NCBI GenBank assembly: GCA_040285855.1
Contig: JAUFOQ010000005.1
Location: forward strand, 1,798,001 to 1,862,000
Reading direction: 5' to 3'
Length of the DNA: 64,000 nt
Source of the DNA: Eukaryota sp. GEM-RC1
Lineage: Eukaryota
Position numbers and translations under genes: made by a program. Below the pieces are notes generated by a model. That model was not told the origin of the DNA. It saw only the letters and a list, made by a program, of their open reading frames with translations, and did not search any database. The stretch's first letter is position 1; each line of letters opens with the position of its first letter. Of the stretch, positions 2,792-56,150 are shown piece after piece.

Positions 2792-3199
2792 TTGTCTAAC
2801 TCAATTATAAGAAACAAGAGCAGAAGTCATTTGATCGGTTCTTGGTTGTTCTCTCAGGAAATAATTGTGGACTTTACTAAGGTTGATCCGTGTAACTCAA
2901 CTTCTGTTAACAGAATTTTAGACGAAAACTATTCATCTCTTGAAACTGTTCAAAAGAAAAAGACAGATCGTTATGTTGAATTAATTTCCAAGATTAATTC
3001 TCGCCGACACAATCCTTTTGTTTTGCATTCTTTTGCTATTTCTCTTTATGGGACGTTTTGCTTCTCGGTCAACAATTTCTCACAGATTTTGGCAGATTGT
3101 GTAAGCAATATGGAAAGAATTTTAATGAAAGTTACTGGAGAGGAAGGTTGTCGTTTTCCCTTTTCAAAGCATTGTCTGGGTATTTTGATTCGATTTTGA
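2792..3199 (+). pseudogene. Degenerate C-terminal restriction-like endonuclease (RLE) fragment of a CRE/SLACS-type non-LTR retrotransposon
   Basis: SRSHLIGSWLFSQEIIVDFTKVDPCNS aligns with SRGDLIGPWLSCQEIIMDFTTVDPCNS of ORF 34853. Confidence 0.75.
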
Positions 3200-8313: not shown

Positions 8314-8722
8314 TTGTCTAACTCAATTATGAGAAACAAGAGCAGAGGTCATTTGATTGGTTCTTGGTTGTTCTCTCAGGAAATAATTGTGGACTTTACT
8401 AAGGTTGATCCTTGTAACCCAACTTCTGTTAACAGAATTTTAGACGAAAACTATTCATCTCTTGAAACTGTTCAAAAGAAAAAATTAGATTGTAATTGGT
8501 GAATTAATTTCCAAGATTAATTCTCGCCGACACAGTCCTTTTGTTTTCCATTCTTTTGCTATTTCTCTTTATGGGACGTTTGGCTTCTCGGTCAACAATT
8601 TCTCACAGATTTTGGCAGATTGTGTAAGCAGTATGGAAAGAATTTTAATGAAAGTTACTGGAGAGGAAGGTTGTCGTTTTCCCTTTTCAAAGCATTGCCT
8701 GGGTATTTTGATTCGATTTTGA
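8314..8722 (+). pseudogene. RLE fragment of non-LTR retrotransposon (duplicate, frameshifted)
   Basis: Copy of 2792-3199. Confidence 0.7.
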
Positions 8723-10716: not shown

Positions 10717-13197
10717 ATACATGTACGTGTATAGTATATTTTTGTCATCCTCTATACACAATATTTTTTTCAGGTTATTAAAATCAAGGTACTTAAAAAA
10801 CAGGACTCAGTTCTGTTATTTGAATTGAGAAACTGAATCAATTTCCACAAAGACCAAAACATAATGTTGTTTACAATCACAACTGTAGAATAGAATCAGT
10901 ACGGTATCATATCTATATTTTGTCTCATTCTCTAGAAGTTCGCGTCTTTTCAATTCCCTAAGTCATTTAGTTATATAACTTCTTGGTTTATATTTTCTAG
11001 CCGAACTATACAACAACGAAAACCGAAACCCGTGTAAGTCAATGTTCTGTAGTAACAAAGGAGATATCATCAGCTCTACATCAACCTCACAAATGATCAA
11101 TTGTCATATTAATTGTTGTACATATAATAGTTGTTGGTTATTTATTTGAAGATACACACCTACAGAGATCGTAAAATTGTATTTATTCCAGTTTTCACTT
11201 CGTTCCAGCCAGTGAAGGGTGTACTCTTTGTGCACTCCCCTAATCAAAACCACACTTCAGACCTCTTGAAAGAGAAGAATGGCTTCATGTGTTCCAAAGA
11301 AGAAGAAGAAATGTAATGTTCATGTATGCAGGTGTGTCAATACAGGATTAGTTTTCCAATACTGCAATCAGTATCGCTCCAATAATTGCTGCCGTTATTT
11401 GAGGTGGTTTAGCATTTAATGTAACTATCTGGAGATATTGGAGCATTGCCAATATACTTTGAGTTGATTGTTTCGTTTTTTAACTTCAATATTTTGTAAT
11501 TTACTTCAAACAAGATCCGATTGTGTTGTTTTATGTATTTAATTATAAAAGTATTATTTTATGACAGTTGTTACTATTTGTTTTTTTGTCTAATGTTTCT
11601 AATTGTGTCGATAATGAAAAAACAAAAACGGTGACTAAAGTTTTGAAGGACAATTTTACTACTACTGCACTCTTCACAAACAATTAGTCTGAATTCATAA
11701 TGAGTTTGTTTCACTTATAAGTCTGAATCAGACTAATTATTGTTTGACCTCGTGAGGAGTGTTCATTACGGTTCAGTTAAATGGTGTTGTAGCCCTTTGC
11801 AACTTTTGTTCCTAGACACTTTGACTTACTTGACGTATTCAGCCCGTGTCATCCATTATTAGCACTTGCTCGAAAGACAATTCGGCCACATATCAATTTT
11901 GAAGAGGTACTGCGGTAGCGGATCAGTCCTGTTTGTGCATGTCTTTGGTATTCACACACTATTTAAGGTGTTCGTCACCAGATCTTTGTTAGACAAATAA
12001 AGCAGAATCTGAAAATTCGTAACTACAAGAAACTGGTTAATTCTGACACTTTTTTTATAATGTGGAGGTATTTTAAGTTGATGAGCGAACAATTACAAAT
12101 TGTATAATACACTGTCCAAAATAGTGAAACTCTTCATACACCTCATTTTGCTTACTTTTGTTTAGTGTATATCCATGATTCTTGAAATGAACCAATTTTG
12201 AAGTATTTTTCTCTCTTTCATCGAGGTTTTACCCATCTGATCTACTCATTGTCTCTACTTAAACCAGAGTTTGCTGTTTTTGAGAGGTATCATGTATAAC
12301 AATAACCGATCTTTACACACAAAGAAGTTTTTTTTGAGGTGCCCTGGATTATATCATTGATTTGCACAGCTTACATACATCAATGCAATGGAGTTGCAAC
12401 GATACAGTAGAAGTGATGTCCGTCTATTCAGAGTAATTGTTGACGAAAAAGTTTTCACTATGTTAGATCTTTTTTCATCTATAGTAGTTGTAGACATGCA
12501 AATCAGATCATTAATTTCAGCACTTTAGCCCGCGCCTATTTTGAAGACGAAATATAAGAGTCAAACAACTCATCAGCATCTAATATGTTACTTAAGTAAA
12601 ATGTGTAATACAAAATTTTAGAAACATATGCTAGGATGGTTTCTATATCATGAGCACGTCCAAATTGAGTGTATATTGGTATGTTAGTGTAGAGAACATT
12701 TGCAACATCATATCAATTGTTAAAGATAGACTTTCCTTCAGTTAATGATAAACTAATGGTTGTTGATGTGATTACTGTTGATGTTTGCAAAAAAGTGCAT
12801 TTACGCATACTGACAATGAAGTTTCTCCACTTCATTTTTCACAACAATTCAAGAGAAACAAATATGATATTCCCCCGACTGTTCTCAAACATAGTGGAAA
12901 AGTTATAATTAATGGAAGGGGAAAAAAGGCAACCAGGACAAAGGAAACAGTTGAATGATTTTAAACGTTTTACTACGAGGTCAATATTTCATGATGTTGT
13001 TTCAATGACAATTCTCCAAGAATGTTTCATGTAGGATGAAAAGAATTCGTTCTCAGTAACGCTCTTCTTCTGAATAGAGATTTCTTGGTTATAAAACCAA
13101 GTGGGGATACAGATTAAAGAAAGATTGAGGGTTTCATGGGAAAATTGAACCAATTTTGAATATCTTTGTCTGACTCAATTATGAGAAACAAGGTCAA

Positions 13198-13566
13198 TTG
13201 ATCGGTTCTTGGTTGTTCTCTCAGGAAATAATTGTGGACTTTACTAAGGTTGATCCGTGTAACTCAACTTCTCTTAACAGAATTTTAGACGAAAACTATT
13301 CATCTCTTGAAACTGTTCAAAAGAAAAAATTAGATCGTTATGTTGAATTAATTTCCAAGATTAGTTCTCGCCGACACAATCCTTTTGTTTTCCATTCTTT
13401 TGCTTTTTCTCTTTATGGGAAGTTTGGCTTCTCGGTCAACAATTTCTCACAGATTTTGCCAGATTGTGTAAGCAGTATGGAAAGAATTTTAATGAAAGTT
13501 ACTGGAGAGGAAGGTTGTCGTTTTCCCTTTTCAAAGCATTGCCTGGGTATTTTGATTCGATTTTGA
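13198..13566 (+). pseudogene. RLE fragment of non-LTR retrotransposon (duplicate)
   Basis: Copy of 2792-3199. Confidence 0.7.
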
Positions 13567-22613: not shown

Positions 22614-23022
22614 TTGTCTAACTCAATTATGAGAAACAAGAGCAGAGGTCATTTGATTGGTTCTTGGTTGTTCTCTCAGGAAATAATTGTGGACTTTACT
22701 AAGGTTGATCCTTGTAACCCAACTTCTGTTAACAGAATTTTAGACGAAAACTATTCATCTCTTGAAACTGTTCAAAAGAAAAAATTAGATTGTAATTGGT
22801 GAATTAATTTCCAAGATTAATTCTCGCCGACACAATCCTTTTGTTTTCCATTCTTTTGCTATTTCTCTTTATGGGACGTTTGGCTTCTCGGTCAACAATT
22901 TCTCACAGATTTTGGCAGATTGTGTAAGCAGTATGGAAAGAATTTTAATGAAAGTTACTGGAGAGGAAGGTTGTCGTTTTCCCTTTTCAAAGCATTGCCT
23001 GGGTATTTTGATTCGATTTTGA
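22614..23022 (+). pseudogene. RLE fragment of non-LTR retrotransposon (duplicate, frameshifted)
   Basis: Copy of 8314-8722. Confidence 0.7.
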
Positions 23023-25989: not shown

Positions 25990-26250
25990 ACGTTTTTTAG
26001 ACTTTGTGTTTTTTAAGAGATAAAAGATTTCCACAAGTGTATGGATTAATATTAAATGATCATCAATGGACCACTACAATGGGACTTCGTTGCTATTTAT
26101 GGTCATACAACTTGGCAAATGATCTTCAATGTAGCTCAGGAAAACAATTAATCTTTTCTCATTTGTTAAGTTGTAACCGCTACATAACTAATCGAACTTG
26201 CAGTATGATGCCGTAAAAGACCAAATGCATGTTATGTGTAAGTCCTACAA
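25990..26250 (+). pseudogene. Non-LTR retrotransposon remnant (pre-RLE zinc-knuckle region)
   Basis: LQCSSGKQLIFSHLLSC is a degenerate CxCx7HxxxC knuckle. Confidence 0.45.
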
Positions 26251-26271
26251 ATCAAATCTTAGTAATTACAA

Positions 26272-27766
26272 TCAATTAAGTTGACGTACACCCAGTATTT
26301 CAACTCTATGATTAACTTTCAACGCCTCTGCCAAAGCTCCGGCACCTTCATCTCCAATAGAGTTGCTACCTAGAACAAGAAGTGTAACTGAAGCATTAAC
26401 TTTCAACACATCTGCCAAAGCTCTGGCACCTTCATCTCCAATAGAGTTGCAATACAGATTAACACTTGTAACAAAAGCATTGACTTTCAACGCCTCTGCC
26501 AAAGCTCTGGCACCTGCAGCTCTAATAGAGTTTTGAGTCAGATTAACACTTGTAACTGAAGTATTAACTTTCAACGCATCTGACAAAGCTCTTGCACCTT
26601 CATCTCCAATATCGTTGAATCTCAGATCAATACTTGTAACTGAAGTATTAACTGTCAACGCCTCTGCCAAAGCTCTTGCACCTTCAGCTCTAATAGAGTT
26701 TTCACTTAGAACAATACTTGTAACTGAAGTATTAACTTTCAACGCCTCTGCCAAAGCTCTTGCACCTTTAGCTCTAATAGAGTTTTCACTTAGAACAATA
26801 CTTGTAACTGAAGTATTAACTGTCAAGGCCTCTGCCAAAGCTCTGGCACCTTCATCTCCAATATAGTTGCTAACTAGATTAACACTTGTAACTGAAGCAT
26901 TAATTTTCAACGCCTCTGCCAAAGCTCTGGCACCTTCAGCTCTAATAGAGTTTTCACTTAGAACAATACTTGTAACAGCAGCATTAACTTTCAACGCCTC
27001 TGCTAAAGCTCTAGTACCTTCATCACCAATTCTATAGTTGAAACCCAGATCAATACCTGTAACTGAAGCATTAACTTTCACCGCCTCTGTCAAAGCTCTG
27101 GCACCTTCATCTCCAATAGAGTTGTCCTCCAGATTAACACTTGTAACTGTAGTATTGGTTTTCAACGCTTCAATCAATAACAAAGAAACAGAGGTGCGTT
27201 GTGTCGCTACTTCTACTTCTAGCTGCTTAAGACGTGGAAATAAAGAAGAAGAATTGTTTAGAAACTCTAAATCAGAGGGTTTTCTTAGTACGATTCTCAA
27301 TCCTGTAATTATACCAGAATAACTAAGAAACTTCTCAAGTTCAAAAGTTTCGCCAGAGTGTAAGAAAACAGATTGTTGATCCACTCCAAAAAAAAAGAAG
27401 CAAGTGAAGTTAGTTTGGGAAGGTGTTCAAGATAAGCATGAACGGTGTGTACTTCAAAATAGACTTTAACTGCTTGGCATGAAGAATCAAGGAAGTGATT
27501 ACTTACATAGCCAGCTTGTCCAAAGAATGTAGGTAACGCTGTTTTCAAAGCAGCGAGTTGAGGAGGAATGTTAGTACGCTCGAGAAGACGTCTCAGCAAG
27601 TGGAGATGGATAATAATCAACAAAGTCTGCTGAACATGGATAGGTTTAAAGGGAGGACGTGTGGATGAAGACAATGCCGACAGTGCGTCACAGTTAGAAA
27701 TCACAGAGGCGAAACTGGAGGATGAACGACTCTTTTCAACAAAGGTTCAGGGAGAGGTTTGACCAT
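26272..27766 (-). CDS. LRR protein copy 6 (10 repeats), two frameshifts (~27731 and a T9 run at 27388-27396)
   Basis: ATG at 27766 (MVKPLPEPLLK, compare copy 7 MPSPHPEPLLK); ORFs 27309-27704 and 26272-27384. Confidence 0.85.
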
Positions 27767-27794
27767 TGGATGATGCAAAGATGGGAACTTTCTC

Positions 27795-28092
27795 AATACT
27801 GTGAATTTCACAACTGCTTACTACTACTAGTAGTAGTACTCCCCAATTATGAAATTCACTCCTGTTTTCACAGGTTGTAAGAGACATATAGCGTCATCTG
27901 ACAAAGATAATCATGATCTTCATCAACGGGCTACATCACTTAGATAGACCGACTGCTTACACTGCTCACACAGAACAAAGTTTCTTAGACTTAATCTATC
28001 TAAATGAACCTGACAAACATATCTACCGGGATAGATACATCACCAGATCGGTCTCAAAGTGGTTTTGTTTATCATTTCTACCGATCTCTCCA
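27795..28092 (-). ncRNA. Putative Fanzor omegaRNA scaffold
   Basis: Six consecutive stems directly 3' of the Fanzor stop: 28045-52/28080-87, 28019-26/28031-38, 27936-50/27993-28007, 27899-908/27916-25, 27861-74 (GAAA tetraloop) and 27801-15/27845-59. All non-Watson-Crick pairs in these stems are G-U on the minus strand. Confidence 0.75.
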
Positions 28093-30014
28093 TTAGACTC
28101 TCCCCGACATTACCTCAGGACAGACGTATCTTCCAGGCCACAACTCTGCTTTCTTCCTAGTCTGAATATTTTTAGCAGCGGAAACATCTCTGTCATATAC
28201 TTGATGGCAGTTGGCACAGACTCTCATTTGCCACCATCTGGTTGCTTCGTTTAGTGACATACAGCAGCTTGACAGTTTGCTAGTGTTGAATTCACTGGTG
28301 GGAAAGTGTTTTACTTCTTTTTGGTGATTCAGCCATTTCCGAAAGCATCGAGCTGATCCATATCTTTTAACTGTCCTGAAATGGGAAGGAAAGTTTGCTG
28401 AGCCAACAGCCAGATACAGTTCCTCTGGATGACCAGAAATCTCTTGAAAAGTATTCAGAGCTTCACGAAAGCGGCGTTCTCTGCGTCTTCGATTGTCGAA
28501 CTTAATCGACTTCCACTTTGACCGGTTACTCTCTTTGTACACCTTTTTTTCTTACCAAATTCCAGTGATTCAAATATAGGTAAATATTTTGCACGGAATA
28601 TTGGTTCGGTGACATTCTGAGAGGAGAAGGGTTTGTTCGAAACTGGTGGCCGGTAGGACACTTGATCAGTCCGTGGTTTTCTTCATTCGAATAGTAACCA
28701 CAAAGACGTGACTGACCAAGATCCACACCCACTAATGGGCCTTCAGGGATAATCTCCTGGGAAGTTGGAGGGCGACGGCGAGGCTTCTTTTTGATCCTTT
28801 TAAATTGATGGATTTGATGCAGTTGGCTTTAGGATCTTGCTGCATCTCAAGTTTTGTCCACCTCTTTTTCTTTTCTGGAGGCTCTCCTTCTTTCTCCAAG
28901 GTTGGCTCAGTCCGTTCAAATGTGATCAAAAGCTCATTTCCATTTGATTTGAGAGCTAACTTTCTGTAGTTTCCTTTGTAACTTTTCTTCCACATTTTGA
29001 ATTTTTCATGTGGACAATTTTTGAAAATTTTCTTCAAATTCTGGTTAAAAATTAAAAATCGATTGGCCCTAGTGCCTATAGCTGGAGGGAATCTTCCATT
29101 GCTTCTGAAGATGTTTGGAGGTACATCCAACAGTTTTGACCCTTTGTGAGGAGCTAAGGGGATCAGTCGGAGCCGTCTCCAATAATGGGAAAAATTACTT
29201 AAATACGTTTCTAAGAATTGTGCAATTGATAGGTTAAAGATAAACAATTCACGAATTTCTTTAGGAGAAACATTCATGTGTTCAGCAGAAGATAAAAGTC
29301 CTTCCGAGACAGGAAAACGATCGAAGAGATGGAAAATAAAATCGACAGCGTTAAGTAAAAAGATTTTTTTCGGACTGATTGTCAATGAAAACATTAACAA
29401 AAGAAGGAGCACTAAATGGAAGATTATGAAAGAGATTAAGAAGATGCGAAGAAAATTGACGATGTGTCTCAATGACCCGACAATAGGCATATAGAAAATT
29501 TTTAATCCAAGCTCTGGATATTTTGGGCAGAGAAGACTTAACATTAGCTGCCGACTGACGAGAACGGCAAGTAAACCACTGCGAAAGATTAGGGCTATTC
29601 ACCACAGAAAAAGTCTGTGTGGCTAGCCAGGAGTTTAAGAAATTCTGGAGGAGTAACCCATAAGTGAGTATATCAGAATTCCACTCAGAAATTAAAAAGT
29701 TTTGGTGTTCCAAAGTAAAAGGAGGAACAAAAGAAGCAGGGGACTCTGGTAGAAAACCATCATAGAAAACATTCAACAAAAGCCTTTGTCCTTTCGAAGT
29801 TTGAGGAGCAGGAAAGCTACTTTTGTTGATGACGGTCATGAAGAGATACCAGACATCCTGTCCGCAATAGCTCTGGCCGCTATAGGGAAAGTGAGAAAAA
29901 AAGAATGAAGAAGCAAAGAAGCTTCATGACAGACTGAATCTGGTGAACTGCTGAAGGTATAAGCAGCGAGTTCAGAGCACACGACCGAGTGAAACACTTA
30001 CGTGGTTGTGCCAT
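28093..30014 (-). CDS. Fanzor (eukaryotic TnpB-family RNA-guided endonuclease, probably Fanzor1-type), ~640 aa, split by at least four single-base frameshifts
   Basis: RuvC-I LVGVDLG; LAVGSANF at the canonical RuvC-II position with a relocated Glu in SEFNTSKLSSCC; zinc finger CC...CANC; RuvC-III DRDVSAAKNI. Start MAQPRKCFTRSCALNSLL at 30014. Confidence 0.85.
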
Positions 30015-32464
30015 GGTGTCGAAGTTTCCGGTCAAGCATAATCACTTTCCTTTCATCATTTTGAGTTTCCCATCCCTGTTATAGTCACACCTTTATAATT
30101 TGTAGCCTTGTCTTACATGGTCATTTGCTAGTCCTCGGTCCCCTCGTCCTATGTATCTGCAATGCTCTGACTCTCTTACTCCTACATCACTTGCTCTCGG
30201 TATCCTATTGCCATCTTCCCTTCTAGATTCCTTCCATACACCCACCACTTCCTGCTAGTCATCCCATTTCTTGTTTCTTAGCATCTCCCTTACAGTTTCT
30301 TTAGCTCTGCTTCCCCTTGTGATGTTCAAGTTTTTGCCTAGGGCTCTCCAATGAGGAAATCACTTACTAATGAGAAGACATTCTATCCAAACTTCGCTTC
30401 TCCTTCAACAACTAATCCACCCAGACGAAGAAGTCCCTTTGGATTGAATCTCATAAGATTCAACTTAAGAATTCGTTCTTTGCTCAATCATCAAGTTGAC
30501 AGCGTTGTGTATAGTAAATGTTCGCTTTGATTCTATGTTAATCAATTTGTCTAGAGTGTTATTAATAATGTGCTCATTATGTATTTTTTCGATTGAATAT
30601 TAGAACGTTTTAATACACTGTATTTTTGAAAAACTTCTTATTATGTATAGATCCTATCATGTTCATCTTAATCCCTTAAAGAATGGGTATTCATGTTCAC
30701 ACGTTCTGACAGTTTTTCAACAACTACAAAAAATAAGACAAATTGAAGAGAATCCCTCAATGCAAACAACTATATGTAACATCCTTTTCGTTAACCAAAA
30801 GAGTTGATACCGTTTCTTCCTGAACGAAGGATATGTGTGATGAGTTCCACTCAGAGTAGCCAAGTGCCTGTTGAGGAAGTTGTTATGTCTATGGATCTGG
30901 CTGACATTGAATCAGAAGAGGCGGATACCTTTCTGAAACTGGTCAGAGAGTCGAAGTGTCTATTTTTGTGATAGGAACTCACAGCAACCGTATAGCGAAA
31001 TCCACGAACAAGTGTGAATATAGAAGTATGATACCTCAAAGAATTCAAATCAAACCAATCGAGTTTTCCATGACAGCAATTGCACTAGGAGGTTGAAAAA
31101 GGTTACCGTAATATCATATAACCAGATATGACTAGATTCCCATCGATATGTATTATTCGTCATTTTTCAACTTTGAGAACTATAGAGAACTATATATAGA
31201 GAACTATCCGATCGATGATGTTAGAAGCGCAATATGTGTAGATTTGGTTAATTGTTTCTTAAAGTAAACGACATTGTGAAGAACTTGGAAAAATCAATTA
31301 CCTCTCAATTAAATTTCATTGTTTAAGGAATGTTAATGCTTCTGTAGAGAAGTACAAATTGTTTATCTGATGATCACTTAATGTAGCGTTTTTCAACTGT
31401 TTTTCCAGAAAAATACTAAAACAACAACATCGTACATCACTTGCAAATTCAGCAGTACACATACATTTACCCTGGAACATCGTAATTACTTCAGACTGAC
31501 CCAGATGTGACACACTACCATCAACTAATAATCTGAACCGTTGATATATACTGAATTACAGTCAACGCTATGTATCAAGGGTCGAGAAAAAATTTGCAAT
31601 TTCTTTTTGCCATAAAAAATGTACAAATAAATTATTGAAAAATCACACCATTCCAATGAATTATTACAATAAATGCAATATTTTGGTTAAAACAGGTCTG
31701 TAAACTTCAGATCAGTGAGTGATTGTTTGGTTTACTTCAGTTCGCTTAATTTTACAAGAACACGATTCATCTTCCATTTTGCTCACTGTTCACACCTATT
31801 TAATTCTCCTTTGCAAAAATTTTGTTACTTGCAATCACTACCTTTCTGAGAACCTTGTCCACAATCTTCTTGCTATTAGTCGGTTTGTGTCAGTAAATTG
31901 TTCAATTGTGTCAGAATTTCTGGCCATTAAAAATGTCTGATTTATTGATATTGTAATTTATTTAATAATATCGTCTTTTGTAGTGTCTTTGTACGGTAAT
32001 TTCGGTCCTTCTTTTAAGCAGTTTTTAAATTTCTTTGAAAATTTGTGTTCAGAGTTTGGCAAGAAGTTTACCAGATCGTACTGGAAGAGTAAATTTGCTT
32101 TTTTTTGATTTTTAAGTCTAAGTGTAGATATGTTGATTCCCTTTTGTCCAAGACTTGGACTCCAAGTTGTTGATGGTATTTACTTTTCGGAATTAAGTAG
32201 TTCGTTTGATAATTTGTTTTAATAGTCTTTATTTATTTGTTGTTTTCTTGTTTTGTGTATTTCTCCGCCCATAAATCCGCTTTTTTTTACTCTATAAGAG
32301 TGACAAAAAGAGAAAAAGTTCAAATATTTTAAATATATGGACTTTAAATGTAAAGAGACTCATTTCAATATTACAAATTTGAAGGTGACCAGTGTTTTGT
32401 TTAAATTCAAGCTGGAATTTGAAAGTTCAATAGTTATAACTTATAAGTGACTAACTCATATGTA

Positions 32465-33845
32465 TCACAACTTAAAGCTACTGTTTCTAAATAATGAAAT
32501 CCCAAAACAATTCATACAATCATAATATACAATGTTATTGTTGACTACTTTTTCAAATTCTATGTTGCACTTTCTATTACTTTCTTAATTCTATGACTAT
32601 AAAACCGTGCCAATCTAGCTCCATGCTCAGAACCCTCGTAAAGAGCTGTACAAGCCGAAACAATTTTTGTAAAAAGATAAGTTTGGAATTTCTTTCCCTT
32701 TTTGAAAACTCCAGTACCTGGAATTGGGGGTCCAAACTCAGGAATCTGATCCTTTCTCGCGACACAGAGCTGGTACCACGTTTTAACTCCAGGAACGTCA
32801 ACTTCCTCAAAATCTGATTCATCTCCTTCGTTTTGGTTGACGTCATCAGGAACGTCATCACCGTCTTCTAGACCAATTCCAGAAACTGACTCGGCATTTT
32901 CTTTTGACGAATTCTCCTCGAAAATTTCAGATTTTTTAAATCTTAAGAGTTTGGAACTATCTTCTTTTCAAGTTGCCGGACGACCTTGATAGTAATCACA
33001 ATCTGATTTTGCTGTGAGATCAACAACGACGGATCAAAAGTTGAATCTCGATCATTCAAAAACACAATCACAACTCCATCATTGCCTACATGACGTTTCC
33101 TAGCAATCTGCTGCTCATCACTTTCCGAAAAAGGAAGGTACGGTGCCACGTGGAACATAAACTCGTGCTCTTTCCATTCTCGATAAACTGATCTCCTTCC
33201 AGAATAGTCTTTAGTTGTACTAAGGCCACCATCATATCCTTTGAAACCTAATAATCTAACACGATCACCTAGCTCGTCAAGGAATTCTTCAAACTTCTCT
33301 GATACACGTTTGTTGGAGTAGATCTCGTTTTCAGAGGTCTGGTCCTTTTCGACGTACAAAACGCCTATTTTATGGACTTTACGATTGTGGTCAACTTCCT
33401 TCTCCATTTCTATCAGCTGTTGTACAAGTTCCTGAGTTGTAGGGATAGATGTGAGACGCAGCGTTGATGGAATGAGCGATCTTTCCACAATTGACGAGAC
33501 TACGTTGTTCATTGTGGGACCGATACAGAACAGTTTCCTCAAGAACGAGTTCTGAACTTCAGAGGACTCAATGTCACCCGAGTACATACCCGCAGATGAG
33601 CGATAGACTAAACGGAAGAATCGACATGATTGATAACGGAAGGAGAAGACAGATATCAGGATGGGATTGTCTTCGTCTGAAAGATCAGTGTAACTGGAAT
33701 GGTGGTGTGTTGTGAAATATGTTTGAAAGAAAGTATTTCGTTGGGAAGACTCTAGAGGTAAGTCTACGTCATCAGGAGCAAGTACATCTGGAGGAACAGT
33801 CTTTTCAATGACCCAAGATTTACTTGAGATGATGGAGTTTTGCAT
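32465..33845 (-). CDS. Rap/Ran-GAP domain protein (one frameshift in an A-run at ~32967)
   Basis: KIGVLYV, FEEFLDELG, GFKGYDGGL, MFHVAPYLP and RKRHVGND motifs; the shifted frame continues YQLCVARKDQIPEFGPPIP...VFKKGKKFQTYLFTKI. Confidence 0.9.
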
Positions 33846-34260
33846 TGGATACTGATAGTAGAGAAATCCTGTCAGGATATGATTGGAAAATTTCTAGTTC
33901 TTCAACATAGTACATGTAGTAGTATAGAGTAGTATGATGAACAATGTTCATACAGTACCATATGTTTTACAGTATATACACCCCCTCACACCAACACTGA
34001 TATTGTAAGCATTATAACAAAAGAATCTCAAAAGTACCAAATGTTCCAAAAGAAAATTAAATTGGATGTGTAAGCGAAACATCAACCAAGTTTAAAACAA
34101 AGTTGACCTGAATTGACTCTCAAAACTCAATTTTAGATTATCCGTTTTATAGTAGCTACATGTCAAAAAGAGTTCATCTATCAGCTTCCATTAGTAGGTA
34201 TTTTTTCCGGAACTTTTAAAATTTTAGAGATAGAACAAAACAAGTTGTTGCAAGAAATTT

Positions 34261-34833
34261 TTGCAATTTCGATCTGTTCTACATAACGCTGTTGGTGACG
34301 TTACTTATGAAATGTTCAAATCCTACAATTATAGTTGTAAAATTGAACCTCTTCTGAAACATTATAGTGACAATAACGTGTTTGATTCTCGGCGTGGTGA
34401 CTTAATTGCTCCTTTCCTGGATTCATCTCAAGTTGTGGTTGATTTTACTACAGTTGACCCGTTTGCAAAAGTCTACCAAGACTCCATATTGAATGATTCG
34501 AATGGTCATCTGGAAAAGGCTGAACACCGAAAGTGTTCAAATTATGCGGCCGCTTTGCAGAAGCTTAATGAAAATCTATATTCTAAGTTTTCATTTGTTC
34601 CATTTGCCATTTCAATTTTTGGTAATATTGGTCCAGCCGGTTTAAAGTTTTTGAGTGATTTTAGTCTTTTATGTCGTTCTAATGGCAAGGTGTTTAATAG
34701 CGCTGTATGGATTAATCGAATTATGTTCGCTCTTTGTAGAAGCATTCCCAAGTATTTATGTTCCATTTATTCGAAGTTGCATAGAGACAATTCTCGTGTT
34801 GATGTGGAGAATTTAACTTCTTTCATTTTCTGA
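34261..34833 (+). mobile_element. 5'-truncated CRE/SLACS-type non-LTR retrotransposon: uninterrupted RLE (PD-(D/E)xK) domain
   Basis: HNAV...KIEP...RRGDL...VDFTTVDP...AEHRKCSNY...FVPFAISIFGNIG. Confidence 0.8.
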
Positions 34834-34852
34834 ATTAGTATGTATTAATATA

Positions 34853-35431
34853 TTGTTGCAAATTAACTGTTGTATTATTCACAACAGTATCCGGGATACA
34901 TGTTTGGATATGTTTAAGGCTAATGGTTTTCATGGAAAAATTGAACCCTTACTTGCTAATCTTTCTGATCAGCCAAAAGTTGATAGAAGTCGTGGTGATT
35001 TGATTGGTCCTTGGTTATCTTGTCAGGAAATTATCATGGATTTCACGACTGTTGATCCTTGTAATTCAAGATCAATTTCCAAAATTTTTGATGATGATTT
35101 TTCTGCTCTTAAAGTGGCTGAAAAAGGAAAAAATACAAAGTACTGTCACTTAATTAACCAATTGAATGTTGACAGGTACAATTCTTTTGTGTTTCAACCT
35201 TTTGCGATGTCGATATACGGTAATATTGGACCAGCTGCACAAGGTTTTTTAACTTCCTTTGGTAAATTGTGTTCTGAGTATGGTAAAGTTTTCAATGAAA
35301 ATTTTTGGTTGAGTAGGTTAACGTTTGCGTTGTTTCGTTCAATGCACAGATATTTTAATTCAATTTTAGTTAAATTGTTCGGTGATGGACAGAAGGATCA
35401 TAGTTTAGATACTTTAGTTAGTGTCTGTTAG
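34853..35431 (+). mobile_element. Second, diverged 5'-truncated RLE domain in tandem
   Basis: HNSIRD...KIEP...SRGDL...MDFTTVDP...AEKGKNTKY...FQPFAMSIYGNIG. Confidence 0.8.
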
Positions 35432-43589: not shown

Positions 43590-45470
43590 ACAATTTCATA
43601 AATTTGAATTTGTTGGTTAACGATGTCTCAGTAACCGGAACCATCGATTCAGGCACATAAGTCACCGTCATCACATCCGACTTAGCCGAATCCCGCAAGA
43701 AGAAGATTTCACATGATACGATATCATACACTTCTGCAGATGGAAACCGTACATCGTCCTTAGGCACAGCCGAAGGTGTTCTTTCGTTCACACTGAATAG
43801 CGTAGCTAACCTAGTTTTCGTAATCATTCCTTCCCAATTGTTACCGGTAATAAACAATGCTCATTGGATTTGATTCACTCAACAAATTAGGGCTATTAAT
43901 AGAGGACAGTCTAGTAATCAAACTAGATAAAGAACATGACACCATTCTGAAAGATGAATTCGAATACGATCACATCACGAGCACTCACCCATCAGTGAAA
44001 TCAATCCGACACACCGATCATTCTTCATCATTCAACCCAGTTGAACCTGGTTGCACAATCACCTCGGTCAATCCTCTTCTAAATCAACAACTGTCATCCT
44101 TCTAGAAGAGTTCAGGATCATCTTCCAATCAGCACCTCACCCTGATGGAATAGATTGCCCACCACTAAGAATCCCCTTCCATGACGAATCAACTGTCGTA
44201 AAACGAAAACCTCGTTTCTTCAATCCTGAGAAACTAAAGACTGCCAATGGCATCTTTGATGAACTTATCGAACATGGATTCGTCGTGTCTTCCCCCAATC
44301 TAAGTTCTCAAACCCTATAGTACGCGTCACGTACCCTGATCATAGGAAACGACGTCTGACTGGAGACTACAGTGGTCTAGGAGGTGTTAACGATTTAACT
44401 GTCCCGATAACATCTGAACTACCCATCATCGCTGATGTGATTACATTCTTACCAGCAGCACACTTCATTGCAATCCCAGATCTCCCCAAAGCCTTTTGGC
44501 AACTCAAAATTGCCCCTCAAGATATGGACAAAACTGCTTCATCAATCCAGAGCTCCATTCGGCTTAAACCAAAATGTACCAGCCATTTTTCAGAACCTGA
44601 TGACAAGATCTTCGCAGTGGAAGGAGTCTTCATCTATTTAGATGATATCATTGTTATAGCTTCAGCGTTCGATGAATTTATAACTCGACTTCGAGCAGTT
44701 TTTAATAAAGCACAATCCGCCAGAGTATCCCTCGGCATCCACAAGTGCAAGTTTGTAACTCACAAACACCCAATCAAGATATCAGGTAGTATCTCCCACA
44801 CCAAAACCAGATTAATCGACGATGTCAGAATCAAAGCTGTTCTTGAAATTCCAACTCCCAAGACAGTGAAGGATGTCAGAAGCCTCGTAGGCTCCATCAA
44901 CTACATCAGAGACTGGTTACCAGGAATATCCAAGTTGATAGCCCCTATCATTGCCCTAACAAAAGGAAAACCAAAAGGCGTGAAATGGGAACCCAAACAT
45001 CAACAAGCTTTTGACTGATTCAAAAAAAGTTGATAGTCAATCAAATCCCCCTCGACCTTCCTGGTTCCACATTGCAACATCCTCATTAGCGCAGACGCTT
45101 CTGACTTAGCAGTGGGAGGAGTCATTTGGAACGAGACTACACCAAGTCCCTCCAGGTACTCCGCTGATAGAACGAAAGGTTCAACCTATAAGTTCTACAG
45201 CAAAAATACTGACCGAATCTCAGCTCAACTGGGCAACCATCCAGAAAGAGCTCTATGCTACTCTCCTTATCTTAACAGAATCGAGTCTGGCAAACTTCCT
45301 CAAGACTAGACACCTTACAATCTTCACAGATTACAAGAACCTAGCATATCTTATTTCGTGTCCCGATAAGAACAGAATAATCAAAAGATGGCTATTCGTG
45401 CTATCAGAATACCAATTCGACATAGTACACACATCCGGAGTAGACAACCATTGGGCAGACATGCTCTCAT
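43590..45470 (+). pseudogene. pol: pol: aspartic protease, reverse transcriptase and RNase H (frameshifts and stops)
   Basis: TIDSGT*VTVI, DLPKAFWQL, FIYLDDIIV, VRSLVGSINYIRDW, ADASDLAVGG, NHWADMLS. Confidence 0.9.
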
Positions 45471-45745
45471 GGTTATGTCCTCACTACAGTTCCCCCTCGC
45501 ATTCCGATGCTCAGCTCACTGATGATCCAGTAGCTCCTCCAAGAATTGACCACACAAACATCCCATCAATTAACAGTCTCCGTCAAGTTGCACAAAGAGA
45601 TCTTCCAATTTTTTGCAATTGGTGGAGCAGAATCCGTTCCAAACAGCGCAAAGCAATCGAATCAAACGAACCTTTCTTCATCAACACAACATTCCACGAT
45701 AGAGTACAGTTATAGTTAACTCCCAACAAGAAAATCCTGATCCCA

Positions 45746-47107
45746 TTGTCCCCCAGGGAATCCACCTTGCTAAACATCCATGGACTAGTTCAATCCGGTC
45801 ACCCCAGTTTATCCACGTCTATCAAAACTCTGAATGACAGCGACTACTGGTGGCCAAACATAAAAGATGATTTAACCAATCACATCAAGAACTGTCCTTC
45901 TTGCCAAAAGACAATTCCAATCAAAAGAGATCAAATCCCTCACTCAGGTTCCTTTTGGGCTGATAAGCCCTTCTCCAAAATCAATGTTGACTCTATTGGT
46001 CCATTATCCCCTGAAGCTGACGGCAACCGTTTTATTTTAGTATTCGTAGATTCTTTCACTAGATTCACAACATTAGTCCCAATAATCGATCTGAACGCCA
46101 AAGAAGCTGCTTATGCACTCGTGTTCAACGTTTGTGGTATATTTGGTATCCCCTACTCCATCCACAGCGATAACGGTCCCGAATTTGCTAACGCAACATT
46201 CAACGCAGTATGTCAACTGCTGGCAATTGAAAACTCCACGTCCATTCCACATTTTTCTCAATCAAACGGGCTAGTCGAGAGACGTCATCGTGATGTCTTA
46301 AGAAATCTTCAACGTTTCATAATCGACTTCGTTACATTCGACAACTGGGCTGAATACATTCCCTTCGTCCAACTCCAGCTTAACGCTACCAAGAACCGTT
46401 ACACCGAACACACTCCCTATGAACTTATGTTTGGGTCAACTTTCGGCCCTAAAGCAGATCCCAGTCTCATAATCAAAGCTCTAGAAGCATCCAATTTAAG
46501 CATCCCTTTTATTGAAGATCTTCAAAGAAAAAACGAGAGAATAAAGGAAAAGCAGGAATCAGCAAGTAGCAATCAATCGTCAAAGAGACCTCCTAAGTCC
46601 AATAAATCAAATCCTTTTGTAATTGGCGATCTGATCCTCGGATCCTCTAAGACTGCTACAAAGCTTCATGGCAAACACTCTGGCTCATTCCTGGTCATCG
46701 AGATCCCTTCACCATCATCCTTGAAAATCAAGAACCTCGTATCTGGTATTGAGTCCCAAGCCAGTGTACAGCAATGTAAGCTGTACAACTCCGATCTTCC
46801 ATCTAACCATGGTATACATCAACAAGTCGCAGCAGGTGATAAGGAAGAACATGTCATCATCCAAGTGTTGGATCAGTTCCACTCACATGAAGGACTTATG
46901 TGTTCTGTTCTGTGGTATGGCGGTGATATCACAACAGTTGCTTCTTCTAGCATTAAAAATACTGAAGCCTATGTCGAGTTCATGAAAAATAACAATAATC
47001 CTCCATCGAGTCCCAGAAAGAGAACCTCATCCAAAGCTAAACATAGTAAAACCCCAATAGCAAAGAGAACTCGAAGAAGCGTTGGCTCGAAGAAGGAGAA
47101 GAAGTAG
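45746..47107 (+). CDS. Retroviral-type integrase with C-terminal chromodomain (uninterrupted part of pol)
   Basis: H-x6-H...CPSC; INVDSIG, HSDNGPEF and NGLVER; tail HVIIQVLDQ...CSVLWYGGDIT. The stop codon abuts the 3' LTR. Confidence 0.9.
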   Translation: MSPRESTLLNIHGLVQSGHPSLSTSIKTLNDSDYWWPNIKDDLTNHIKNCPSCQKTIPIKRDQIPHSGSFWADKPFSKINVDSIGPLSPEADGNRFILVFVDSFTRFTTLVPIIDLNAKEAAYALVFNVCGIFGIPYSIHSDNGPEFANATFNAVCQLLAIENSTSIPHFSQSNGLVERRHRDVLRNLQRFIIDFVTFDNWAEYIPFVQLQLNATKNRYTEHTPYELMFGSTFGPKADPSLIIKALEASNLSIPFIEDLQRKNERIKEKQESASSNQSSKRPPKSNKSNPFVIGDLILGSSKTATKLHGKHSGSFLVIEIPSPSSLKIKNLVSGIESQASVQQCKLYNSDLPSNHGIHQQVAAGDKEEHVIIQVLDQFHSHEGLMCSVLWYGGDITTVASSSIKNTEAYVEFMKNNNNPPSSPRKRTSSKAKHSKTPIAKRTRRSVGSKKEKK

Positions 47108-47553: not shown

Positions 47554-48726
47554 CTAAGGTATTAACTTCCAACACCTCTGCCGAAGCTCTTCTCTGGTAC
47601 CTAAAGGTCCAATATCGTCGTTGTCCCTCAGATCAACACTGGTAACTGAAGAATTCACTTTCAATGCATCTGCCAAAGCGCAGGCACCTTCATCTTTAAT
47701 AGAGTTGTTACGCAGAAGAATACTCGTAACTGAAGTATTGACTTTCAATGCCTCTGCCAAAGCTCTGGCACCTTCATCTCCAATACAGTTGCACCACAAA
47801 TTAACACTTGTAATTGAAGCATTGACTTTCAACGCATCTGCTAAAGCTTTGGCACCTTCAGGTCCAATAGAGTTGTGCCCCAGATTAATACTTGTAATCG
47901 AAGCATTGACTTTCAACGCATCTGCTAAAGCTCGGGCACCTTTAGCTCCAATAGAGTTTTGACACAGATAAACACTTGTAATTGAAGCATTAACTTTCAA
48001 TGCATCTGCCAAAGCGCAGGCACCTTCAGCTCTTATTGAGTTAGCACTTAGATCAATACTTGTAACTGTAGTATTGGTTTTCAACGCTTCAATCAATAAC
48101 ATAGAAACAGAGGTGCGTTGTGGCGCCACTATTACTTCTAGCTGCTTAAGACGTGGAAATAAAGAAGAGGAATTGTTTAGAAACTGTAAATCAGAGGGTT
48201 TTCTTAGTACGATTATCAATCCTGTAATTATACCAGAATAATTGAGAAAATTGTCAATTTCAAAAGTTTCGCCAGTGTATAAGAAAACAGATTGTTGATC
48301 TGCTCCAAAGAAAGAAGCAAGTGAAATTAGTTTGGGAATGTCTTCAAGATCAGCAGGTAAAGTGTGTAGTTGAAAATAGACTTTAACTGCTTGGAGTGAA
48401 GAATCAAGGAAGTGATTACTTACATAACCAACTTGTCCAAAGTATGTAGGTAATGCTGTTTTCAAAGCAGTGAGTTCAAGATTAGTTCGATCATCATCGT
48501 ATGAGTATGACCGAGACCAGAACTCAAAAGAACGCTTAAAAAGACGTCTGAGCAAGTGGAGATGAATAAGAATCAACAAAGTCTGCTGAACACGTATACT
48601 TTTAGAGGGAGGATGTGTTGTTGAAGACAATACCGACAGTTCGTCACAGTCAGACATCACAGAGGAGATACTGGAAGGGGATGAACGACTCCTTTTCAAC
48701 AATGGTTCAGGGTGAGGTGAGGGCAT
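47554..48726 (-). CDS. LRR protein copy 7 (5 full repeats plus a partial one, frameshifted C-terminal cap)
   Basis: 390-aa ORF. The family cap VNTLVHID* lies in another frame just downstream, and the upstream region is shared with copy 4. Confidence 0.9.
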   Translation of the reverse strand: MPSPHPEPLLKRSRSSPSSISSVMSDCDELSVLSSTTHPPSKSIRVQQTLLILIHLHLLRRLFKRSFEFWSRSYSYDDDRTNLELTALKTALPTYFGQVGYVSNHFLDSSLQAVKVYFQLHTLPADLEDIPKLISLASFFGADQQSVFLYTGETFEIDNFLNYSGIITGLIIVLRKPSDLQFLNNSSSLFPRLKQLEVIVAPQRTSVSMLLIEALKTNTTVTSIDLSANSIRAEGACALADALKVNASITSVYLCQNSIGAKGARALADALKVNASITSINLGHNSIGPEGAKALADALKVNASITSVNLWCNCIGDEGARALAEALKVNTSVTSILLRNNSIKDEGACALADALKVNSSVTSVDLRDNDDIGPLGTREELRQRCWKLIP

Positions 48727-50061
48727 TGACGGATCAAGAAACTTTCTAAACTTAATAATGTCAACTTGGTTTAGAAACCAAGCACCGTTTGAACTCTCCA
48801 GTCACTAGAAGAACAGTACTGTTAGTGAATCCTTTTAATCCATCATGAATCATTCTTGGAGACGGTATGAGATTTGCCATCAAAATGACGTAGCGTGGTG
48901 TTCGGAATAGATGCTGCATTATATCAGAATTAGAGAGCATATCAATTCTTCAATCCGAGTTATTGTTACAATTTTGTCGCTATTTCCACAACAATGATCA
49001 GAAATGTGTAGAAATAGTCCGTTCTTTTGATGACGTGTCACGTAGGATAAAGCTTACCTATTTGATAAGTTGTTGTGAATTCAAGGAACAGGAAAAATCC
49101 ATTTACAAAAAAAGAGACTTTTAACATGGCACTGTTAGCGAAGATAGCGAGACCAAGTAGATATCTTCACATCTGATGACGTGTCATTTAGTCTTCAGGA
49201 TTTCTCCGTTAACAATAAACTGTTCTTTCTTATATTTTAGTAATTCGACCTATTGACGAATTTAGTTTCGGTAAATGCCATGCTGTGTTGTTCTTACATA
49301 TCAGTCACCGAGTTCATTGTAATGAAATGATCTTCCTCAAGTGCTTCTAATCATCAATTATTTAGTAATCTACATAGATTTTAAATCTACATAATAGTGG
49401 AATTTTCATCTTGGGTTAGTCGTTTTTTAAATTTAATTGGATTTCCTCCAAGTTCATTTTCAGACTTTGGCCTGTGAAACCTTTTGATTAATCACTCTAA
49501 AGTACACAATCACTTTATGTTTCTAAGAATTAAAATGAGAATATTCATGTTTATGATAGATATAATGTCAGGTATCAGATTTTCCTACAATCAGTGGTAT
49601 TGTCACAAATTGCTGTCAAAAATGTATGTGAGTTAAAAATACATCATCAAAATGAAGAATCAATCTGTGATGGAAGTTTCAAGAGTAACATCATTCTGTT
49701 GTCATTGAAAATTTGGTTTGTACTACGCCATTTTTGCTAGTTTTCGACGTAGGTCAGACTAAGTTTATTGAACGAAGTGGTTATGTAAAACTAACAGAAA
49801 TGCTTACAGTATTTTAAACAGCTCGATCTTTACCATATTCGTCATTCATAACATTCCATGTATTGTTCAATGACACAACAATGTCGTTATTCCTGACCAG
49901 AAAAATGTAGTTAATGAATTACATCTATTACACTCAGAAAATTCCAGTATCTAAATAAAAATACATACTTTAAATTACACAAAGAAACTAAAGTCAAAAG
50001 TATTAACAAACACCATGGACCACACAAATTATATTACAACACAAACACTCATAAACATCAC

Positions 50062-53300: not shown

Positions 53301-56150
53301 ATGCTGACTTTGGCCTTTCGTATCCACTACGCTACGGTTCCTGGAGAAACTGTTTGTGTTAGAGGAAACACACCTGAACTAGGTGACATGAATCGTACCA
53401 GTGCTCTTCGTCTTGTCTACCAAGGTGACGGGGAGTGGTTTGGTAGTGTTGATATTCCCGATGAGCACCTCAAGAAATCCCCTGATAACCACCTTAATGG
53501 AATTTCTTATCGCTACTATGTTTCTCGTCCATTCGTCGATCTTGAAGAACATGGAGACGATCGTGTCATCCACTTCCATCGTGACTCCCGTCTCATCCGA
53601 TGCAACGATACTTGGCGTCCATATCTCTCTGCAGAGGACTACATCGCCGAAAGAGCTGTTATGCGTCGTGTTCTATGCTATAGACAGTCCGCTGATCAAC
53701 CATTAGAATACCCACCTCTACCTCTATCAGGAAGTGTTTCCGTCCGCTTCTCCATCAACGTACCCCGCCTCGATCCCCACCACAAGGTTGTTCTCGTCGG
53801 AAGTTCCACTATTCTTGGTAGCTGGGACTCCCGTCTAGGCGTCCCTCTCCTTGACGGAACCTTCCCAATCTGCTCTGTTCATTTGAACATTCCCAATGAC
53901 AAGCTCAACTTCGAATACAAGTACGTCATTGTGGACAGTGAAGGCCATCCTCTTCATTGGGAGTCCTTCGAGAACCGTACCTTCTCCAAAGGGTTTATCC
54001 CTCCCTCTACTGACCTTCACAACACGATTTGCTTCCAGGATGATGGAACCTTCCGTTATCCCACTAGTGGCCAGTTCAAGGGTTTCGGTGTAATTTGCCC
54101 AATCTTTTCACTCCAAAAGTGAGACTTCTTGTGGTATTGGTGAGTTTAATGACTTAAAGTTGGCTTCTGACTGGCTGTCAGCAATGGGGTCCAAGTTAAT
54201 TCAAATTCTTCCCATTAATGATACCAGAGTCTTTGGGGACTTCAGAGATTCGTACCCGTATTCAGCCATTTCCGCGTTTGCTCTCCACCCTATCTACATT
54301 CATTTACAAGCTCTGCCTGGAATCACTGAAGAAATGTTGGAAGAAATCGATGAGTTTACAAAGAGATCAAATGACCCCAATGAGGTTGATTACGATCCCA
54401 GAATTCAATTCGACTATCCAAATACTATCAAATTTAAAGAAGAGATCATCCAACGAGCCTTTGACAACTGTATTGATTCCTTTAAAGATGATAAAGACTT
54501 CAACAACTGGGTAGACAACAGTAAGGCTTGGCTTCACTGGTACGCCACCTTCCTCTACTTTAGAAAGATCAACAATGAACCTAAGTGGGAGAACTGGCCT
54601 AAGGAACATACGACTAACCTTACAATGGAAAAGATTCAGTCGTTTTGTTCTCCTGATCATGCTGCTTACAAGGACATTCTTCTTGTTTTCTTCACGCAGT
54701 ATAACCTTCATCTACAGCTCTTGGAAGCTACTCAGTATGCAGCTAAGCACGGAGTCTGTGTTAAAGGTGATATTCCTATTGGAGTTGATAGAAACTCAGT
54801 AGATGCTTGGAAAGATCAAGATGAGTACAAACTTGATAGGTCAATCGGAGCTCCTCCTGATCCCTTCTCTGCCACTGGTCAGAACTGGCTTTTCCCTCCT
54901 TATGATTTCGATGTAATGCTATCAAAGAGTGATCCTCTAGCTTGGTGGACAACTAGAATGAAGCACATGTCAATTTACTTCCATGCTTTTAGAATTGATC
55001 ACGTCATTGGATTGTTCAGGATCTGGGAGATTAGAGCTGATGCGAAGACTGCAATCATGGGTCGTTTTGAGCCTACAATCAAGTTTTCCGAAAGTGATTT
55101 AAGAAATCAATATGGCCTCTGGGACTTTGAACGTCTCTCTCTTCCCTATGTTACTGAAGATATCCTTGGTAAATGGTTCGGGATCGACAAGGACGAAGTT
55201 CAAGGTCGTTACTTCATTCATCAACATGATAGACTCCAGTTTAAACCTGAACTACTGGTCTCAGAACTAGCAATGCTAAGTAAATTGGACGAGGATTTAG
55301 CAAAGGAAGTTAAGGAGAATCCTGACCAAGACAAGTATATGTTGGAATCCAAATACTTTGATTGGAAGAACAAACTGCTTAGTTTATGGAATGAACGAGT
55401 CTTAATTGAAGAAGAAGAACATGGGCAGGTGTTCTACTATCCTTTGTTTGATGCCAAGAAGACAACAAGCTTTAGACACCTTTCTCCTGGTGATCAAGCT
55501 ATCATTTCCACTATCCATGAGCTCTACTGCTACGGAACTATCCAGAATGACGTTTGGAAGTCCTCTGCTTACCGTAAACTACCTCAAATTGCTCATTGTC
55601 ACGACATGCTTGTCTGTGGAGAGGATCTTGGTGTAGTTCCTGCGTGTGTCGAGGAAACTCTAGAAGATCTACGTATTCTTGGTCTTAGAATTCAACGAAT
55701 GCCTCCCAACCCTAAGAAAGAGTTTGGTCATCCAGATGATCCTCAACTCTACAATTGGATGACTGTTTCATCTCCTTCTACTCACGATATGCCTTCTCTC
55801 CAGCACTGGTGCTTAGAGGATAGAGATCGTCTACAACGTTTCTGTAGTAATATTCTGGGAGTTCATGAGATTCCTGGAGCCTCGGACATTGCAATGAGAG
55901 TGTTTCAGCAGCATATCTATGGAAGGTCAATGTGGACCATTTTTTAGTTCAAGATTTGATTAGTATTTCTGATAGATTACGTTGGAAGGGAGATCCTGAG
56001 TTGGAACAAATCAATGTTCCTTCTGAAAGATGGCATTATTGGAGATATAGAATTCATCATCCTCTTGAGCAGTTGTTAGGTGATCGGGAGTTTATTAATG
56101 ACGTGAAGTCTTCTTTGATTAAGTCAAACAGATTTTCTGTTTATGGATAG
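53301..56150 (+). CDS. DPE2: 4-alpha-glucanotransferase (2x CBM20 + GH77), two homopolymer frameshifts (~54116 and ~55943)
   Basis: GNTPELG and VGSSTILGSWD CBM20 motifs; QILPINDT, DSYPYS, KGDIPIGV, GAPPD, GQNW, RIDHVIG, GEDLG, IQRMP, STHDM, INVP, WRYR. Confidence 0.92.

Follow-up and report, generated by a model that had tools for sequence, protein, structure and literature searches.

The closest described systems are Fanzor1 (SpuFz1 of Spizellomyces punctatus, PDB 9cez/8gkh; GtFz1; PpFz1), Fanzor2 together with IS607 TnpB (mimivirus Fanzor2, PDB 9b0l), and IS200/IS605 TnpB together with Cas12f. Bao and Jurka described the Fanzor motif as D-X(125,275)-[TS]-[TS]-X-X-[C4 zinc finger]-X(5,50)-RD (PMC3627910). 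Later surveys report that the canonical RuvC-II Glu is replaced by Gly or Pro in Fanzor (PMC10530073), that the Gly-for-Glu swap is accompanied by a relocated Glu (PMC10530073, PMC10711439), and that in Fanzor this alternative Glu precedes the zinc finger by six residues (PMC10711439). DPG at RuvC-I has been described as a near-exclusive Fanzor fingerprint, TDG as the WED motif of Fanzor1, and D-hydrophobic-G as the ordinary RuvC-I motif of TnpB (PMC10711439). Fanzor1 is further characterised by an enlarged REC, a 3'-terminal omega-RNA conserved among copies and carriage by a eukaryotic DNA transposon, and Fanzors in general by TAM-dependent DNA cleavage under RNA guidance. PMC10432273 describes the biological role of Fanzors as unknown. 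A Fanzor HMM match from Carpediemonas is already tabulated in Table S2 of PMC10711439, and metamonads are therefore not a new supergroup for Fanzor.

The window analysed here is a 64,000-nucleotide stretch of contig JAUFOQ010000005.1, labelled Eukaryota sp. GEM-RC1, and its content is eukaryotic, comprising a leucine-rich-repeat (LRR) array, a Rap-GAP gene, a glucanotransferase gene, a GT-AG intron-like stretch and retroelement remains. The array holds eight LRR_6 paralogues (3386-24291, 26272-27793, 47554-48801 and 57538-58984), five of which lose the frame at one shared T-rich spot. Remains resembling non-LTR 3' ends, classed by eye, lie at about 2786-3199, 8341-8697, 13174-13566, 22641-22997, 26031-26251 and 34234-35431, four of them just upstream of LRR paralogues, and remains of LTR-retrotransposon reverse transcriptase and integrase are found at 44263-47107 (Pfam RVT_1, rve, Integrase_H2C2) and 62982-63815.

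On the minus strand, a broken gene of the Fanzor1 lineage extends from an ATG at 30014 to a stop codon at 28093-28095. Its breaks were mapped by frameshift-aware alignment of the window DNA to three uninterrupted full-length relatives present as gene models, P0024 (648 aa), P0028 (646 aa) and P0011 (651 aa). In these alignments, 599 of 635 aligned codons are identical to P0024 (94%), 584 of 633 to P0028 (identity to P0028 is also given as ~94%) and 358 of 626 to P0011. The same set of five breaks, read from the assembly sequence, is obtained against each of the three.

28093-30014, minus strand: broken Fanzor1-lineage gene in six in-frame pieces, corresponding to a 648-aa protein (comparison with P0024, P0028 and P0011)
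29935-29936, minus strand: break 1, an inferred 25-nt deletion outside any run, residues 27-35 lost (gap against P0024, P0028 and P0011)
29861-29862, minus strand: break 2, loss of a single base at codon 60, away from any run of 5 or more (alignment and run list)
29364-29370, minus strand: break 3, an additional base within an A7 run (alignment)
28788-28794, minus strand: break 4, one base missing at the A5 run 28788-28792, not at 28798-28801 (alignment)
28544-28550, minus strand: break 5, an additional base within an A7 run (alignment)
28858-28881, minus strand: basic cluster PPEKKKRW, inferred to be NLS-like, with two private changes, K389E and R394W

A preliminary description had stitched this locus into a protein of about 640 aa without in-frame stops by means of four single-base corrections, each placed in a homopolymer. 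All the motifs it named (VGVDLG, VGSANF, EFNTSKLSSCC, CANC and DRDVSAAKNI) are found on the minus strand between the ATG and the stop codon, and the four-break path indeed yields 639 aa free of stops. Comparison with the intact sisters, however, does not bear out the claim that four corrections in homopolymers suffice: three of the five breaks lie in A-runs (A5-A7) and breaks 1 and 2 fall outside homopolymers. Four fixes seemed enough because breaks 1 and 2 together shift the frame like a single fix at 29896-29902, a T7 run at which the alignment to the intact sisters needs no change. Along the four-fix path, agreement with the intact protein falls to 6 of 34 positions in residues 27-60 and to 3 of 6 in residues 411-416, so that one of the two reported NLS-like clusters, KRIKKKPRRRP, is partly off-frame (the sisters read LKGSKK[K/Q]PRRRP), whereas the other, PPEKKKRW, is in frame and appears as PPKKKKRR in the intact 646- and 648-aa sisters. 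The correct frame of the window copy contains no stop codon; left unedited, its ATG opens a frame of 44 residues. A GT...AG stretch at 30001-29951 was considered as an intron and dropped; it codes for residues conserved across families. The suspicion that annotation had missed the gene is borne out by the public gene model P0060, which, compared with window positions 28995-26275, fuses 87 residues from the middle of the Fanzor to the neighbouring LRR gene and leaves out the RuvC part, a mis-join that therefore hides the locus.

The catalytic and diagnostic positions of the window copy can be placed as follows.

28721-28723, minus strand: RuvC-I Asp D440 in D-L-G, near-invariant in alignment A3, at the end of a predicted strand
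28402-28404, minus strand: Gly G546, where the canonical RuvC-II Glu would lie (alignment and model)
28291-28293, minus strand: relocated RuvC-II Glu E583, six residues ahead of the first zinc-finger position, invariant in alignment A2
28207-28272, minus strand: zinc-finger region S-S-C-C ... C-A-N-C (C592/C593/C608/C611), the SxCC form being found also in P0062, L001 and L002
28186-28191, minus strand: RuvC-III Arg-Asp, R617 and D618 (sequence comparison)
28939-28947, minus strand: SNG at the position of the Fanzor1 WED 'TDG' motif (motif table)

The complete triad reported earlier, with a Gly at RuvC-II and the Glu moved in front of the zinc finger, is thus recovered in G546, E583, D440 and D618. 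G546 is near-invariant among 24 sequences and ends a predicted strand (541-546), the canonical position itself being inferred from the model. The motif of Bao and Jurka can be fitted throughout, with D440, 145 residues, T586-S587, the zinc-finger region, 5 residues and R617-D618. Membership of the TnpB/Fanzor family, as earlier proposed, is upheld by a match of the last open reading frame to Pfam Cas12f1-like_TNB above the curated cut-off (E 1.1e-6) and by the RuvC fold predicted for an intact sister. The DPG fingerprint is absent, RuvC-I reading DLG in the window copy, P0024, P0028 and P0011; DPG occurs in the sister families P0041, P0045 and P0068 and in P0061, L001 and L002, and DPN in P0057. 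The aligned WED position reads SNG, TNG or SDG here and TDG in P0061 and L002. In a tree of 16 rows, built from the C-terminal 390 residues with long branches meeting and reference Fanzors left out, the window copy joins P0024 and P0025; the DLG group as a whole (99/99) is nested within a metamonad clade (98/97). Because this group is nested among DP-bearing relatives, it is called a Fanzor1-lineage variant and not a canonical member: on sequence comparison, the window gene and its sisters belong to the Fanzor1 lineage with a DLG variant. Size, SNG at the TDG position and the lack of an HTH or TnpA favour Fanzor1; Pfam searches of P0024, the gene pieces and eight upstream ORFs detected neither the N-terminal HTH nor the serine-recombinase TnpA of Fanzor2/IS607.

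The preliminary description had proposed a structure comparison, which predicts a RuvC (RNase H-like) fold for the intact sister P0024. The model was built from a 24-sequence alignment and has a mean pLDDT of 57.9, with 259 of 648 residues under 50; the RuvC elements mostly reach 60-82, the WED region stays under 50, and a model made without the alignment has a pLDDT of 34. No Foldseek match reached E 0.001; the top-ranked entry is SpuFz1, a weak match (E 4.8e-3, 712 columns, TM 0.20), and every entry listed down to rank 27 is a Fanzor, TnpB or Cas12 protein. In VIA, residues 430-646 align with RNase H-fold proteins, several of which tie for the best rows; among them are TnpB 8h1j (Z 10.2, rmsd 4.5, 159 aligned) and mimivirus Fanzor2 (Z 9.5, rmsd 4.8, 173 aligned). 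The VIA alignment to GtFz spans 323 residues (Z 8.3, rmsd 20). Atlas gave a feature score of 0.98 and a TM of 0.61 over 497 residues to clusters of about 700-aa TNB-domain proteins, mostly from giant viruses. Searches of PDB sequences with phmmer and hmmsearch returned TnpB/Cas12 zinc-finger tails and no Fanzor chain.

Compared with the described systems, the window family shares with Fanzor1 a size of about 650 aa, the Gly at RuvC-II, the relocated Glu, the C-terminal RD, a motif at the TDG position, multiple copies without a linked transposase, a structured 3' region and an end-to-end, though weak, Foldseek alignment to SpuFz1. It differs in having DLG instead of DPG, SNG instead of TDG and an SxCC zinc finger, in its identity of about 13% to SpuFz1 and in the lack of detected terminal inverted repeats, and the window copy itself is broken. 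Fanzor2 and IS607 TnpB have the same rearranged RuvC site and align in the RuvC/TNB part, but this alignment covers only the C-terminal 200-230 residues; the N-terminal helical part of the window family is longer and lacks an HTH_OrfB domain, and no serine-recombinase TnpA match lies nearby. With IS200/IS605 TnpB and Cas12f, the family has in common Pfam Cas12f1-like_TNB, the RuvC fold and the D-hydrophobic-G motif, and it departs from them in the Gly replacing the canonical Glu, a eukaryotic host and about 200 additional residues, with no TnpA or CRISPR array seen. The Carpediemonas membranifera protein KAG9392881.1 is likewise a Fanzor-like protein from a metamonad but carries DPG, a comparison based on its row in Table S2 of PMC10711439.

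A search with the last open reading frame returned 5 of 141 candidates, all of them gene models labelled Eukaryota sp. GEM-RC1 or TZLM1-RC and standing for clusters of 82, 11, 5, 2 and 1 gene models. With P0002 as query, a full HMMER scan yielded 29 matches and added three TZLM3-RCL-labelled families and two distant metagenomic proteins. Many near-identical relatives occur across three related genomes. Dozens of dispersed copies are about 91-98% identical, and this multi-copy dispersal argues for mobility. The intact sisters are predicted to encode nucleases of the Fanzor type that cut DNA under RNA guidance. A third stand-alone family, the P0057 cluster (592 aa, DPN at RuvC-I, seven full-length models among 10 members), is a good candidate for an active element. 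One further copy, P0030, is interrupted by sequence related to the non-LTR-like remains of the window. Uninterrupted Fanzor1-like ORFs with DPG and SxCC are present on the metagenomic contigs L001 (214-2283, 689 codons) and L002 (646-2685, 679 codons). Scanning metagenome contigs with P0024 confirmed 0 of 43 stretches, and viral contig scans 0 of 25 and 0 of 3; profile A2 confirmed 4 of 37 metagenomic stretches, all distant at 25-38%. A preprint (10.1101/2023.05.03.539051) treats three metamonads, Skoliomonas sp. GEMRC, Skoliomonas sp. RCL and S. litria, whose nanopore assemblies were corrected with short reads, and the soda-lake habitat is given in PMC11603281. The labels GEM-RC1, TZLM1-RC and TZLM3-RCL presumably correspond to those Skoliomonas names, and the host of the window copy is likely an anaerobic soda-lake protist, a haloalkaliphilic metamonad.

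Downstream of the stop codon, the gene is followed by a structured region and a host gene.

27794-28092, minus strand: structured non-coding 3' region, a candidate for the omega-RNA and the right end, with an approximate boundary (folding)
27801-27859, minus strand: long terminal hairpin with 29-nt arms (z -6.67, 0 of 200 shuffles)
28013-28030, minus strand: six-codon echo PGRYVC of the gene's own C-terminal tail (28120-28137)
26272-27793, minus strand: host leucine-rich-repeat gene paralogue, limiting the element on its 3' side (BLAST, Pfam LRR_6)

The fold of 27780-28140 reaches -113.7 kcal/mol (z -5.37, 0 of 100 shuffles as good) and includes a long stem in which 27936-27948 pairs with 27995-28007; windows upstream of the gene fold no better than expected by chance. 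Part of the terminal hairpin may belong to the host, given a loose likeness to DNA upstream of LRR paralogues; the hairpin was also considered as a Helitron 3' end, which was not established. No second copy of the 3' region occurs within the window, and Rfam gave three weak matches to it, all far below the gathering score. The PGRYVC echo, which lies inside the candidate omega-RNA, differs from its source by four silent codon changes; a 6-residue match arises in 1 of 2000 shuffles (a post hoc figure), and the DNA-level alignment is within chance (137 of 500 shuffles). In BLAST comparisons, homology with six other LRR paralogues stops between 27739 and 27793, and the end of this homology at 27793 places the right end between 27793 and the stop codon. 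On the left, a piece shared with the 3' flank of another LRR gene (32122-32282) may bound the element. The earlier failure to find a partner transposase or a left end is repeated here: none of eight upstream ORFs has a transposase domain, no transposase was found in the window, and a search for terminal inverted repeats and target-site duplications between 27761-28100 and 30015-31600 gave no inverted match longer than 9 nt and no direct match longer than 11 nt.

Judged from the assembled sequence, the window locus is probably a decayed, dead Fanzor copy, and the enzyme is most likely not made. The stretch removed by break 1 is present in every full-length relative with an intact N-terminus and forms a well-predicted helix conserved between families, and this 25-nt deletion is a stronger argument for decay than the substitution test. 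In that test, private substitutions were counted against 12 GEM-RC1-labelled proteins after dense mismatch runs had been removed by script as frameshifted tails, and the window copy carries 25 in 635 residues, compared with 7 in 648 for P0024 (Fisher p 0.001) and 1 in 646 for P0028 (Fisher p 3e-7). Thirteen of the 25 fall at sites conserved between the two stand-alone families, 60% being expected without selection (p 0.27). Between 1.6 and 7 private changes per 100 residues are also found in other annotated copies, several of them partial gene models; the window copy is thus not alone in its load, and the private changes of P0024 also fail to spare conserved sites (4 of 7); the test is therefore weak when taken alone. 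The preliminary description had suggested that the gene may be intact in vivo, pointing to housekeeping genes with the same homopolymer indels. This comparison holds in part: the 4-alpha-glucanotransferase gene (53241-about 56200) has two frame switches, at about 54105-54120 and 55940-55945, and the Rap-GAP gene (32560-33893) has one at about 32965-32968, all beside short runs, deduced from frames and Pfam continuity and not from reads, and likely to be assembly errors, whereas what breaks the DHHC-motif gene is an intron-like GT-AG stretch of 31 nt. Run-adjacent frame switches, again inferred from frames, affect five of the eight LRR paralogues, and in light of these cases the three A-run breaks of the Fanzor copy may be sequencing miscalls. 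That every break is an assembly error and the gene intact is nevertheless very unlikely: such a reading would explain the position of three of the five breaks in A5-A7 runs, the similar switches in the glucanotransferase, Rap-GAP and LRR genes, and a stop-free correct frame with its catalytic residues kept, but it is opposed by the 25-nt deletion in a conserved helix, the single-base loss outside any run, the scrambling of residues 27-60 on the four-fix path, and 25 private substitutions that look unselected and do not spare conserved sites.

A dead protein gene might still leave a locus that makes an omega-RNA, loaded in trans by intact copies and directing cuts near the LRR array. This is unlikely, as the strongest hairpin of the candidate 3' RNA may be partly host DNA, even though the 3' region folds far better than shuffles, intact sisters exist, and 'ghost' omega-RNAs of Spizellomyces support SpuFz1 editing according to PMC10432273. 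It is highly improbable that the family as a whole no longer cuts and has become an RNA-guided DNA binder or a host-adopted gene marked by DLG and SxCC. The D-E-D triad is kept in full-length proteins of every family compared, and dozens of dispersed copies at the identities given above point to mobility and not to domestication; the shift from DPG to DLG in both stand-alone families and the replacement of the first zinc-finger Cys would suit a non-cutting protein, as would the lack of a transposase or ends near the window copy, but D-hydrophobic-G is the ordinary TnpB motif (PMC10711439) and SxCC is also found in unrelated Fanzor-like proteins.

If the window copy is a decayed member of a mobile family, an intact copy would produce a nuclear protein of 646-651 aa together with an omega-RNA from its structured 3' end. 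Sequence immediately flanking the element on the right would serve as guide and direct the complex to cleave the site that lacks the element; when the break is repaired from the copy that carries it, the element would be maintained or would spread. This scheme is modelled on Fanzor biology as given in PMC10432273 and PMC11423790. Since no transposase was found in the window, mobilisation would proceed by a transposase in trans or by recombination. The window copy would have sat directly upstream of an LRR gene of the tandem array and then decayed without selection.

In a sister species, an Exo1-like nuclease appears to be joined in frame to a Fanzor, an arrangement seen in predicted gene models. 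In P0068 (1323 aa, TZLM3-RCL label), XPG_N and XPG_I domains precede a complete Fanzor. The N-terminal part of P0068 matches human Exo1 (E 3e-38), and the active-site acids, which we take to be the seven catalytic acids of Exo1, line up in this alignment. The same Exo1-Fanzor junction is spanned by P0063, P0066 and P0087, and also by P0086, P0054 and P0074 of a second family, about 50% alike, while P0095 and P0096 span the linker and the Fanzor. Both the Exo1 active-site acids and the Fanzor triad appear to be kept in the fused families, and the two families group together in the 16-row tree (89/92), which suggests a single capture of Exo1. At residues of about 90-99 of P0068, and also in P0064 and P0066, the peptide GDVEPNPG, presumably 2A-like, is followed by Met, not Pro, directly before the start of Exo1. 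Within the window, residues 1-580 of P0068 gave no tblastn match at E 1, and a word search with the Exo1 part returned nine proteins, none of which comes from the two genomes with stand-alone families, a result that counts as weak evidence. As a tentative and possible scenario, this metamonad Fanzor1 lineage would spread by guided cutting and copying, and one branch would have captured Exo1 as an N-terminal fusion, giving an enzyme that combines 'cut and resect' in a single chain and biases repair toward homologous copying of the element, with the window branch as the unfused sister.

The literature search returned no paper on Fanzor in metamonads, and among the matches listed Fanzor occurred together with Exo1 in editing reviews. 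Among these matches, in which subscription papers are thinly covered, no title or abstract refers to a natural Fanzor fusion or a Skoliomonas Fanzor. The word 'Fanzor' is absent from the main text of the Skoliomonas genome preprint (10.1101/2023.05.03.539051), and the readable supplementary files of two other Fanzor surveys contain no metamonad or XPG match. The Exo1-Fanzor fusion, not found in print in this search, would be new. The window locus itself adds little, because it most likely represents a defunct copy of an enzyme type already known, and it is the intact sisters and the Exo1-fused relatives that deserve attention. The locus points to intact Fanzor1-lineage proteins of 646-651 aa in likely haloalkaliphilic metamonads, in which dozens of copies per genome are enough to define the ends, the omega-RNA and the TAM from assemblies alone. 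Resection commits a break to homologous repair, and a natural Exo1-Fanzor fusion, if true, would therefore make the homing hypothesis directly testable.
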